5,068 nucleotides of DNA. Source: a virus (lineage: Duplodnaviria; Heunggongvirae; Uroviricota; Caudoviricetes). The translations under genes were made by a program, and so were the position numbers. How positions within the stretch are numbered: position 1 is the first letter of the stretch; each line of letters opens with the position of its first letter. Shown here in pieces: positions 1-5,068 of this stretch. The stretch lies in IMG/VR virus record IMGVR_UViG_2671180254_000011. The stretch is one strand, 5' to 3'. A model generated the notes under the pieces. It saw only the letters and a program-made list of their open reading frames with translations. It had not been told where the DNA came from and ran no database searches.

Positions 1-71
1 AGGAAACAACATGTTGGGTGGAGCGGACAATCCAAATGGCGAATTACCGTCTTATATCACTGGCGCTGACA

Positions 72-300
72 ATATCAATGATTTTCTGGTGCGTACCGGG
101 TTGAGAAGCGGTGTAAGTGAACTGCAGTTGCCATGTTTTACGGCAGTGAGAGCAGAGATAGCGCTGATGTCCGGCAGTGCCTTTTGCCGTTACGTACCAC
201 CCCGTCAGTAGCTGAACAGGAGGGACAGCTGATAGAAACAGAAGCCACTGGAGCACCTCAAAAACACCATCATACACTAAATCAGTAAGTTGGCAGCATC
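72..300 (-). mobile_element. insA: IS1 left-end fragment, truncated (about the first 229 bp of IS1: terminal inverted repeat plus 5' part of insA), oriented on the minus strand
   Basis: Reverse complement of 278-300 is ggtgatgctgccaacttactgat, the IS1 left inverted repeat as I recall it. Reverse complement of 72-300 follows the IS1 left end through the insA region; the ORF-track fragment [37 protein letters not shown] matches InsA. Similarity to IS1 stops abruptly below position 72. There appears to be a 1-nt insertion relative to the IS1 I recall near 165-190, shifting the insA N-terminus out of frame. Confidence 0.85.
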
Positions 301-410
301 ACCGAAGTGGTAAAGAAGATAATAAAGAATAATATTTAGGGTTATAGGTCTTAGCCCATTTTAAATGGAAGGCAGACATGCAGCCATGCATACTTCGCAT
401 GGCAACATAA

Positions 411-752
411 TTATTTAGACAAACTATCTAATTTTTGCGTCGCTTTTTGTGTTAGGTCGCTGTAACTGATAAACCCTACGTTAGCACCTACAATTAACAC
501 TAAGAACACTAAGCTGCATATGGATAGAGTGGCAGATTTATGCTTATGGAAAACAAAATATGCTACTATTGCACTTAATATGAAGGAAATGAATAGAAAT
601 ATAGATGTTGATGTTTTTAGATATTTTTCAGGAAATAATGGGTGAGCAATAATGTATACAAGATTAAGTAGTATATAAATTGCTACCGGAATGAAAATCA
701 TGCTCCAGTGTGTATCTTTTTTGGGAGGGATTGGCTGCAAATAATCAGACAC
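411..752 (-). CDS. hypothetical small integral membrane protein (113 aa, three predicted transmembrane segments); function unknown
   Basis: 114-codon open frame in very AT-rich DNA, where stop codons are frequent by chance. Three hydrophobic stretches: WSMIFIPVAIYILLNLVYIIAHPLF, SIFLFISFILSAIVAYFVF, LSICSLVFLVLIVGANVGFI. Same strand as, and 82 bp downstream of, the 835-1212 ORF. Start is ambiguous: GTG at 752 or in-frame ATG at 701, neither with a strong Shine-Dalgarno. Confidence 0.55.
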   Translation of the reverse strand: MSDYLQPIPPKKDTHWSMIFIPVAIYILLNLVYIIAHPLFPEKYLKTSTSIFLFISFILSAIVAYFVFHKHKSATLSICSLVFLVLIVGANVGFISYSDLTQKATQKLDSLSK

Positions 753-834
753 CGTTTTTCCATCAGTTTCAAGAAGAATTACTAGATCTCTTACTTCACC
801 ACTGACTTGAGTGCATCCTTAGTAGTAATGTTAA

Positions 835-1212
835 TCATTTTTTCCCTCCAAATACGATGCCCTCTACGTCTTTGGAAGCTTTTTGTGATGACCACTCCTC
901 TGAATCAGGTGATTTAATTAAAAATATTGTATCTCCATCAAAAATCGTATTTGTTCCGTAAAAATTCACATTTGATAGATCACCACCAAAAACCCTCTGC
1001 CCACTCGAGGTAATTGCCTCACCTAATTTAGTAAAATTACCAGCAATAGATGATTTTCTTTTTCCACTTCTATTCAAAGTGGCTTTAATTACACCACCAC
1101 CATCCTTAGAGTTAAATAATTGAATGTCCACTCCAGCAGTTGGTTGTATATATTTTGAAAGCTCTTTCTTGAACTTGTTAATATATTTATCTTTGTTTTC
1201 TTTGTTGGTCAT
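835..1212 (-). CDS. hypothetical soluble protein (125 aa), lysine-rich N-terminus, glycine-rich core; function unknown
   Basis: 126-codon open frame in AT-rich DNA. No hydrophobic signal peptide or transmembrane segment. First gene of an apparent two-gene minus-strand unit. I do not recognise the sequence (MTNKENKDKYINKFKKELSKY...GIVFGGKK). Confidence 0.55.
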   Translation of the reverse strand: MTNKENKDKYINKFKKELSKYIQPTAGVDIQLFNSKDGGGVIKATLNRSGKRKSSIAGNFTKLGEAITSSGQRVFGGDLSNVNFYGTNTIFDGDTIFLIKSPDSEEWSSQKASKDVEGIVFGGKK

Positions 1213-2920: not shown

Positions 2921-3304
2921 ATGCGTGATATTCAGATGGTTCTTGAGCGTTGGGGAGCGTGGGCGGCTAATAATCATGAAGATGTGACCTGGTCGTCCAT
3001 TGCCGCCGGTTTTAAGGGATTAATTACTTCAAAAGTAAAATCTCGCCCGCAATGTTGTGACGATGACGCGATGATTATTTGCGGGTGCATGGCCCGTCTG
3101 AAAAAGAACAACAGCGATTTGCACGATTTATTAGTAGATTATTATGTAGTCGGTATGACATTCATGTCACTGGCAGGTAAGCATTGCTGCTCTGATGGTT
3201 ATATCGGGAAAAGGTTACAGAAGGCTGAGGGCATAATTGAAGGGATGTTAATGGCATTAGATATCCGGTTAGAGATGGATATCGTTGTTAATAACTCTAA
3301 TTAA
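2921..3304 (+). CDS. quuD: Q-family late-gene antiterminator (phage 82 / DLP12 QuuD type, 127 aa)
   Basis: ATG at 2921 with GGAG 7 nt upstream. [33 protein letters not shown]...DIVVNNSN matches QuuD as I recall it. The ORF-track start at 2906 is a TTG-initiated upstream extension that I do not favour. Confidence 0.85.
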
Positions 3305-3319
3305 TATGCCAATTGTTTA

Positions 3320-3355
3320 CTAAAAATTATTAAAAATGGGGCGTTGCAACGCCCC
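3320..3355 (-). terminator. candidate rho-independent terminator for minus-strand (porin) transcripts
   Basis: GC-rich perfect palindrome ggggcgttgcaacgcccc (3338-3355). On the minus strand it is followed by the T-rich tract atttttaataattttta; on the plus strand it is followed by A-rich sequence, so it looks unidirectional. Confidence 0.5.
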
Positions 3356-3443
3356 CAAAAATAAAGGGTAATATATAACAGAAGGTTTATATAGTTAGAA
3401 GCAAGGTTGTGCTCCTAAAGGAAGTGGCTTGAGGGAGCCACTT

Positions 3444-3482
3444 ATATGTTGGGGAGGCAAAGCCTCCCGCAACATATCTTTT
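3444..3482 (+). terminator. candidate rho-independent terminator for plus-strand transcripts leaving the quuD region (tR'-like position)
   Basis: Arms atatgttggggaggc (3444-3458) and gcctcccgcaacatat (3462-3477) pair with one bulged C around an aaa loop, followed by cttttagt. Lies 11 bp from the porin stop codon. Confidence 0.45.
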
Positions 3483-3492
3483 AGTAATCAAA

Positions 3493-4575
3493 TTAGAACT
3501 GGTAAACCATACCTACAGCAACGATATCATCGGTAGCAACGCCAGATGCTTTCGTGAAATCGCTCTTATCAATCAGGTTGATTTTGTAATCAACAAAAGT
3601 GGACATATTTTTGTTGAAGTAATAGGTTGCACCTACATCAATATATTCAACCAGGTCCTGATCACCCCACGCACCCAAGTCTTTTCCTTTAGATTGCAGG
3701 TAAGCAACGGACGGACGCAGACCGAAGTCGAACTGATATTGTGCAACTACTTCGAAGTTTTGTGCTTTGTTGGCAATATGGTTATTACCAAAAACAGTCA
3801 TGTTCTGGGTTTCAGAATAGGTGGTAGCCAGATAGATGTTGTTCGCATCATATTTCAGACCAGCTGCCCATACTTCAGCATTTTGACCAGATGCATTCAG
3901 GCTGTTGTTACCGTAGATAACCTGATTATTAGTGCGGTCAGATTTAGCATAGGTTGCACCTACACCGAATCCTTCATACTCATAAGTAGTGGAGAAACCG
4001 AAACCATCACCATTAGCTTCAGTTACGTCAGTGCGGTCATTTTTACCCTGATACTGAGCAGCAAAGTTCAGACCATCAACCAGACCAAAGAAGTCGTTGT
4101 TACGATAAGTTGCAACACCAGTGGTGCGACCAGTCATGAACACATCTGTTTGAGTCCAAGTGTCACCACCGAATTCTGGCAGGACGTCAGTCCACGCACC
4201 GATGTCGTATGCTACACCGTAGTTACGGCCGTAATCGATGGAGCCGTAGTCACCGAATTTCAGGCCAGCGAAGGCAAGACGGGTTTTATCTTTGGAGGAA
4301 CCTTGAGATTCAGCGCGGTTGCCTTTGAATTCATATTCCCACTGACCGAAACCAGTCAGTTGATCGTTGATTTGGGTTTCACCTTTGAAGCCAAGACGGG
4401 CATAAGTAGTATCACCATCATCTGCATCATTAGAGGAGAAGTAGTGCTTAGCATTAACTTTCCCGTACAGATCCAGCTTGTTACTGTCTTTATTATAAAT
4501 TTCAGCTGCCTGAGCAGACATCGCCATCAGTACTGATGCAGCTACAGCAGAAATTGCCACTGTTAATTTTTTCAT
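3493..4575 (-). CDS. nmpC: outer-membrane general porin of the OmpC/OmpF/PhoE family, prophage-encoded NmpC/Lc type (360 aa precursor with signal peptide)
   Basis: Start assigned to ATG 4575 ([23 protein letters not shown] then [17 protein letters not shown]...), a typical signal peptide with AQA-A cleavage motif. Porin hallmarks are present: [58 protein letters not shown]-terminal VYQF. The 20-codon N-terminal extension in the ORF track (to 4635) is rejected. Confidence 0.9.
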
Positions 4576-4854
4576 CGTGAGCCCTTTTTTTGAACTATTA
4601 TTAAAAAATGATGTCATTGCGCGATAAATATTCATCTAATCAATGTGATTATTTCAAGATGTAAGTTTTGGTTTCTCGTTTGATTTGTGAAGTAGATCTC
4701 TATTTTTATCTGAACTTTTTTCTATCGAATCCTATTCATGGCTCTTGACTGAATAAAAATAAATCTATTAGCCAATTTATATTAACGGCTGTTATTTATA
4801 AGTGCTCTATAATTTGAAGGTTCAATTTAAACCGGCTAAAAATAACACTGGAAA

Positions 4855-4876
4855 TTATTTGTTGGTTATTTGTTGG
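4855..4876. repeat. 11-bp tandem direct repeat (ttatttgttgg x2)
   Basis: Exact adjacent copies at 4855-4865 and 4866-4876, in the AT-rich region about 280 bp upstream of the porin start. Confidence 0.5.
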
Positions 4877-4965
4877 GATTTGCTTATGTATTTGTAGTGG
4901 TGTTTTCAATACTCGGTAGCATTCTCGCAAATATCATTTAGTGGTTTACGTACGTAAAAAATTGG

Positions 4966-5068
4966 GGTAATGACTCCAACTTATTGATAGTGTTTTATGT
5001 TCAGATAATGCCCGATGACTTTGTCATGCAGCTCCACCGATTTTGAGAACGACAGCGACTTCCGTCCC
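4966..5068 (-). mobile_element. IS1 right end (right inverted repeat and adjacent 3' region), element continuing beyond the window end
   Basis: 4966-4988 reads ggtaatgactccaacttattgat, the IS1 right inverted repeat as recalled. The following about 80 nt (gtgttttatgttcagataatgcccgatgactttgtcatgcagctccaccgattttgagaacgacagcgacttccgtccc) match the complement of the IS1 3' region, so the IS1 body including insAB lies to the right on the minus strand. Confidence 0.9.

Follow-up and report, generated by a model that had tools for sequence, protein, structure and literature searches.

Two IS1 sequences in the same orientation near the ends of a prophage fragment raise the question of whether the DNA between them moved as a unit or whether each element arrived on its own. 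The fragment that we analyzed (hereafter, the window) is a 5,068-nt stretch of tailed-phage DNA (IMG/VR record IMGVR_UViG_2671180254_000011) with a piece of IS1 near its left edge and the beginning of another IS1 at its right edge. From the letters of the window, an earlier note had proposed that the intervening cassette, nin genes, quuD, and porin gene formed a Tn9-like composite that could be deleted, amplified, or mobilized, and that the right-hand element might cut late transcription off from the lysis genes. The features discussed below are listed in Table 1.

Table 1. Features of the window and of comparison loci (window coordinates unless a locus is named)
Feature	Position	Strand	Remarks
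IS21, terminal 71 bp	1..71	minus	End of the 2131-bp IS21 within the left IS1; L006 14550-16680
Left IS1, IRL-proximal 232 bp	72..303	minus	Part of a full IS1 split by IS21; IRL end at 303
Replication gene P (lambdoid), last ~29 bp	304..332	plus	Truncated by the left IS1; assigned from coordinates only
quuD, Q-type antiterminator gene	2921..3304	plus	Pfam Phage_antitermQ, E = 3.5e-53; upstream of porin and lysis operon
NmpC/Lc-type porin gene, intact, 360 aa	3493..4575	minus	Exact protein on many contigs; Pfam Porin_1
Putative essD-rrrD-Rz promoter and start site	4592..4624	plus	From published primer numbering; predicted +1 near 4624
First ~342 nt of the predicted ~525-nt essD leader	4624..4965	plus	AT-rich, 27-32% GC; interrupted by IS1
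Target-site duplication, left copy, AAAATTGG (8 bp)	4958..4965		Second copy directly after the IS1 IRL, beyond the window
Right IS1, IRR-proximal 103 bp	4966..5068	minus	IRR at 4966 (GGTAATGACTCCAAC...); element leaves the window
Independent E. coli IS1 insertions in the porin-essD module	L004 ~6001-6769; L003 ~6001-6769; L001 ~6427-7194		

Source of the window

Four assemblies were retrieved by the exact sequences of the window's porin and of its 125-aa cassette protein: CP049179.1 (L006), CP104423.1 (L017), GCA_040188885.1 (L025), and GCA_002073875.2 (L022), the last being the published genome of Shigella sonnei 4303 (PMC6201595). All four have both IS1 junctions in common with the window and are 99.7-100% identical to it on either side of its run of Ns. 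Since four near-identical assemblies, S. sonnei 4303 among them, carry this locus, the window derives from S. sonnei or from something extremely close to it. As the host of the insertion, a defective DLP12-like prophage of the S. sonnei lineage is the best explanation, and jointly with the simple IS1 insertion described below we hold it to be very probable. Two places in the left IS1 piece set the window apart from all four relatives (an extra C at 180/181 and a T at 195), and the window thus represents a different isolate or a different assembly. Both the extra C and the T are also absent from other IS1 copies, and the extra base would frameshift insA; the differences at 180-195 may be real, or they may be an assembly artefact within a repeat. 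The run of 198 Ns (2159-2356) hides the end of ybcO and the start of rusA, and the relatives are continuous there.

Among complete RefSeq genomes of E. coli, the right junction was found in 0 of 5,426, the nearest case being strain MS20675, whose IS1 lies 19 bp further right. An exact scan of species-representative genomes for the 50-bp right junction likewise returned 0 matches. In L022, the right IS1 measures only 464 bp (3738-4201), the left element is 822 bp long (8912-9733) with a duplicated stretch, and the IS copies are oddly arranged. The 464-bp element is most likely the product of a collapsed assembly, a real internal deletion being the alternative. Since its IS repeats look collapsed, L022 is unfit for questions of IS structure.

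The prophage DNA of the window includes an unannotated two-gene cassette between P and ybcN. Its first gene (835-1212) is intact and encodes the 125-aa protein (phrog_18061). The second (411-838, minus strand) encodes a 142-aa membrane-like protein (phrog_16940) in the relatives and is frameshifted in the window by a 1-bp deletion near 813/814. The cassette proteins gave no Pfam match above threshold and no PADLOC defence model.

The right-hand IS1 and its target site

The last 103 nt of the window, which begin GGTAATGACTCCAACTTATTGATAG as read from the window itself, are the end of an IS1 in minus orientation. The IS1 terminal inverted repeat GGTAATGACTCCAACTTATTGAT matches window positions 4966-4988 exactly, three further IS1 copies from related loci have the whole 103 bp at their IRR-proximal end with 100% identity, and elements that complete E. 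coli genomes list as IS1 family transposase match at 97-99%. Translation of the minus strand from 4981 to 5067 gives GRKSLSFSKSVELHDKVIGHYLNIKHYQ followed by a stop, i.e., the C-terminus of InsB (28 codons plus stop codon), and this is identical to the C-terminus of the InsB ORF of L006. An exact match of 103 bp to a known element is not due to chance, and since the alignment to IS1-free relatives breaks off exactly at 4965, the IRR starts at 4966. The position and orientation claimed for this element in the earlier note are thus confirmed by identity to IS1 copies and by the InsB translation.

The window ends 103 bp into the element, and the completeness of this IS1, the second copy of its duplication, and the lysis genes were read from the relatives. 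The element is 768 bp long in L006 and L025 and 769 bp in L017, with the IRL (GGTGATGCTGCC) at its far end. In L006, insA (91 aa) and insB (167 aa) are intact, as is the A6C -1 frameshift site (TTAAAAAACTC motif), and the IS1 proteins of this assembly matched the InsA and DDE_Tnp_IS1 domains of Pfam with E = 4.7e-31, 1.3e-21, and 5.9e-78. Between the right IS1 of L006 and a third IS1 of the same locus (sequence from L017) there is no difference, and the left IS1 of L006, with IS21 removed, deviates from the right one by 1 nt.

The DNA on either side of the element reads ttacgtacgtaaaaaattgg / IS1 / aaaattggttatgctg in L006, L017, L025, and L022; in the orientation of the window, L006 has ...gtacgtaaaaaattgg / IS1 (768 bp) / aaaattggttatgctgttaagagtgg..., and the immediate flanks are ...aaaaaattgg / aaaattggttatgc in all four. 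The corresponding empty site, GTAAAAAATTGGTTATGCTG, with a single AAAATTGG, occurs in E. coli 214-4, phage PA-2, and phage 434B. Since AAAATTGG stands on both sides of the element in S. sonnei and only once in the IS1-free relatives, it is an 8-bp target-site duplication, and IS1 is known to generate duplications of 8 or 9 bp (PMC12428005). Extending the sequence rightward and looking for a target-site duplication, as the earlier note had advised, therefore both gave clear answers: IS1 is complete in three near-identical assemblies and is followed by the essD leader and the lysis genes, and the duplication is found in four of four.

With a high degree of confidence, we interpret the right IS1 as an ordinary simple insertion that transposed alone into the AT-rich spacer between porin and essD. 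One IS1 copy would have landed by itself between the porin gene and the holin gene essD, duplicating 8 bp as it did so. On account of its own duplication and the match to an empty site, we rejected a recombination junction at this element. Compared with the 768-bp IS1 of E. coli and Shigella, it has the same inverted repeats, InsB C-terminus, insA/insB with A6C, 8-bp duplication, and AT-rich target, and there is no difference of substance, only 103 bp lying within the window.

The left-hand IS1, IS21, and a scar in cscK

At the other end of the window, the earlier note had described an IS1 fragment at 72-300 in minus orientation. The orientation stands; the true end is at 303, ggcagcatcacc being window 292-303. 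Removal of an IS21, which splits the left IS1 of L006 541 bp from its IRR end, leaves a whole 768-bp element. The piece in the window is the IRL part of that split element, and a truncated IS1 remnant is ruled out. The IS21 of L006 is 2131 bp long, encodes IstA (390 aa) and IstB (265 aa) with the Pfam domains rve/Mu-transpos_C_2 and IstB_IS21, and is flanked by a 4-bp duplication, ATAT. The junction of IS21 and IS1 was found in one piece in a single E. coli record, a plasmid of strain VTB97432v.

Alignment to IS1-free relatives that have the cassette begins at window position 303, and P ends at position 14290 of L010, which corresponds to window position ~332. By coordinate mapping, the inner flank of the left IS1 would thus be the 3' end of P, and the early region of the prophage is cut away at this point.

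On its outer side, the left IS1 abuts cscK' beside cscB, ending ...gttaCTGCAAGCG. A third IS1, inverted, lies 3.6 kb beyond, with CTGCAAGCGctccgcaacgt after it. Where the cscK of E. coli is intact (L027), these flanking sequences are contiguous and contain one CTGCAAGCG, and in L017 this 9-bp sequence is divided between the two inverted IS1 copies (11805-11813 and 16150-16158). This divided duplication is a scar that records two events: an IS1 inserted in cscK (sucrose kinase), and recombination between IS1 copies then inverted a segment of ~3.6 kb that carries cscB and a fragment of an AlpA-like island. The arrangement of these flanks indicates that homologous recombination between IS1 copies has happened at this locus, and that it involved the left and third copies, not the right one.

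The lysis genes and the porin gene beside the insertion

The DLP12-type lysis cassette of E. coli K-12 affects outer-membrane vesicle production and is reported to contribute to envelope maintenance. Behind the right IS1 this cassette is present: essD (71 aa), rrrD (165 aa), and Rz (152 aa) begin ~190 bp past the IRL, and in the three uncollapsed assemblies their called lengths are those of IS1-free prophages. In the empty-site relatives, 183 bp separate the insertion point from the start of essD on its right, so the insertion does lie, as had been supposed, where DLP12-type prophages continue into the lysis cassette.

For cloning of the regulatory region of the DLP12 lysis operon, the start site of Rueggeberg et al. 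(2015) was taken as reference and the segment numbered -121 to +650, with the primers listed in a supplement (PMC7918800). The forward primer of that study is window 4503-4522, and in the K-12-derived QSR region of phage 434B (L015) the primer pair spans 771 bp (121 + 650), the reverse primer falling within essD. From the position of the primer and the 771-bp amplicon, the +1 of the lysis operon, which is taken solely from the primer numbering of this secondary paper, would lie near window 4624 on the plus strand, 49 bp from the divergent porin ATG, and essD would begin at about +525. By our own reading of the sequence, a sigmaE-like GAACTA-N16-TCATT is present at 4592-4618. On this numbering, the essD leader would be interrupted by IS1 at about +342, with the predicted promoter on one side and a tR'-like terminator, ahead of essD, on the other. 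This terminator, a hairpin (AAACCCGCCGTCGAGCGGGTTT) followed by a T-run, begins 38 bp rightward of the insertion point in the relatives with an empty site and comes after IS1 in L006; a terminator-like hairpin ahead of essD is conserved across the compared loci. With regard to position, the earlier suggestion that IS1 separates the Q-dependent or lysis transcription start from the lysis genes would thus hold for a start near 4624.

What the insertion does to transcription can be predicted only in outline. The leader of essD would be longer by 776 bp upstream of the terminator, and non-antiterminated transcription into the lysis genes would probably be reduced; a polar effect on these genes is plausible. 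Polymerase modified by QuuD might still read through. QuuD is a Q-family protein, as judged from its Phage_antitermQ domain and a distant match to solved structures of Q21 (E = 7.6e-7). No promoter-like site turned up when the porin-essD spacer was scanned for the sigma-70 consensus, and the sequence thus gives no position for a Q-dependent pR'. No Q-binding or pause element was recognized in the essD leader, a scan of the window and of an empty-site locus against Rfam returned no family, and the records of phages 434B and PA-2 annotate no late promoter in the spacer. Just beyond the window, an outward promoter-like site is formed by TTGGCA in the IRL and TATGCT in the target, 17 bp apart and directed toward essD (L006 8856-8828, minus strand). 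With the early region of the prophage gone, late induction of the classical kind probably no longer matters.

The porin ATG, as called in the relatives, is at 4575, and the boundary at 4965/4966 lies 391 bp upstream of it, in good agreement with the ~390 bp given in the earlier note. Upstream of the porin gene, 390 bp of its own DNA thus remain in place. Of the CRP sites annotated in PA-2, the proximal one lies within this stretch, and the distal one, 14 bp to the right of the insertion point, is separated from the gene. Weak transcription of IS1 itself would be directed toward the porin, the expression of which is probably little affected by the insertion. The 3' untranslated region of the porin gene (3305-3492) contains two hairpins and has no Rfam match; it may correspond to the stretch downstream of nmpC/lc that has been described as ipeX, an RNA inhibiting OmpC expression.

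A simple insertion might nonetheless be of functional importance, by silencing or rewiring the lysis operon (through its separation from a sigmaE/QuuD-controlled promoter or through a hybrid promoter that IS1 supplies) or by altering porin expression. Its predicted place at about +342, between start site and terminator, would favor such an effect, as would the weak outward promoter aimed at essD, the direction in which IS1 itself is transcribed, and the parting of the porin gene from its distal CRP site. However, the hybrid promoter matches the consensus at only 9 of 12 positions and is no commoner than in shuffled sequence, and with the immunity and replication region already gone (P is truncated by the left IS1), control of late genes may be moot. 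Moreover, half of the pseudogenes of S. sonnei have been put down to IS insertion (PMC7373316), and neutral fixation is the default expectation. We therefore regard a functionally important insertion as unlikely. The more specific proposal, that IS1 uncouples the DLP12-type lysis cassette from an RpoE/QuuD-controlled promoter in S. sonnei and so represents a fixed regulatory change instead of neutral IS litter, appears to us quite unlikely.

Breakpoint or composite transposon

If the window's own source resembled E. coli MS20675, the right IS1 could mark the breakpoint of a rearrangement or deletion, with the lysis cassette absent or moved. In MS20675, IS1 is inserted 19 bp further right than in S. 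sonnei, and the rest of the prophage is replaced by ISAs1 and unrelated genes of PAAR/WD40 type, with no essD; moreover, the left IS1 of the present locus bears an inversion scar, and the window is identical to none of the retrieved assemblies. Against this, all four assemblies that have the exact junction carry the duplication and the essD leader behind IS1, and their identity with the window is 99.7-100%. A breakpoint is thus very improbable, and the simple insertion remains our reading of the right-hand element.

The proposed composite transposon was correct as to geometry. The left and right IS1 have the same orientation, as confirmed in L006, and are direct repeats 4.66 kb apart; in that assembly, neither outer end (IRR on the left, IRL on the right) is damaged, and the right copy encodes intact InsA and InsB. 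In these respects the pair resembles Tn9 (IS1-cat-IS1), in which direct IS1 copies with intact outer ends likewise enclose a few kilobases. The arrival, mobilization, or amplification of cassette, nin genes, quuD, and porin as one unit is nevertheless barely credible, because the outer flanks differ (tgcaagcg, from ...ctgcaagcg, versus aaaattgg...) and thus share no duplication, the right copy has its own AAAATTGG, which pairs with its inner flank and not with the outer flank of the left copy, the DNA between the copies is contiguous resident prophage, collinear with IS1-free prophages, the insA of the left copy is broken by IS21, and the unit was found nowhere else. With respect to the last point, no plasmid covered at least 80% of the window, only partial matches to prophage and IS1 being returned, and no complete E. 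coli genome joined window 1-300 to the cassette. In S. sonnei, where sampling of the bracketed unit comprised the four assemblies, it was single-copy and in the same context in each, and recombination between the left and right copies was seen in none. What lies to the right is what the earlier note had named as evidence against its own composite: an IS1 with its own duplication, in ordinary intergenic DNA, with an intact lysis cassette beyond. The 4.66-kb segment could in principle still be deleted by RecA-mediated recombination between the two direct copies; the four assemblies do not show the product.

IS density and repeated insertions at the same module

Reference chromosomes of Shigella, including that of S. 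sonnei 53G, carry 229-348 IS elements, 46-73% of which are IS1 (PMC7373316). This corresponds to ~105-250 IS1 copies per ~4.9 Mb, and by our own arithmetic random placement would yield 5-27 pairs of neighboring, same-orientation IS1 copies no more than 4.7 kb apart per genome. In L006, three IS1 copies occur within 21 kb. Since 5-27 such pairs are expected in each genome, an IS1 bracket of this kind is expected background, and the direct-repeat arrangement is a by-product of IS1 crowding, not a unit that moved. The locus fits the IS expansion described for S. sonnei (Hawkey et al., 2020; PMC7373316) in that it holds one of many IS1 copies, an IS nested in another (IS21 in IS1), and an inversion between IS1 copies, the last two being typical of such genomes. 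The supplements of that study contain no entry under nmpC, essD, quuD, ybcQ, cscK, or cscB.

The module composed of quuD, porin, spacer, and essD in DLP12-type prophages has been struck by IS elements repeatedly and independently. In E. coli TA8571, an IS1 has duplicated 9 bp, GATTATTTC, which would be about +24 to +32 of the predicted leader; in E. coli JNEC-KY204, IS1 lies inside the signal-peptide codons of the porin; and IS5 is inserted in nmpC of K-12/434B. In 9 of the 5,426 genomes, IS1 was near enough to a 509-bp query for at least 80% coverage. The repeated hits are consistent with the AT-richness of the spacer. Whereas the IS5 of K-12 and the IS1 of JNEC-KY204 break the porin gene, the IS1 of S. 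sonnei leaves all flanking genes intact.

Biological significance

The IS1 insertion described here is already known in the sense that it is present in public complete genomes. The bracket formed by the two IS1 copies is a coincidental geometry in an IS1-saturated S. sonnei genome, and it matters mainly for correct annotation. For the biology of S. sonnei, a damping or rewiring of the expression of the lysis genes or of the porin by the insertion would be of some interest. The locus also provides a worked example of layered IS events, with an IS21 nested in an IS1 and an inversion between IS1 copies that runs through cscK.
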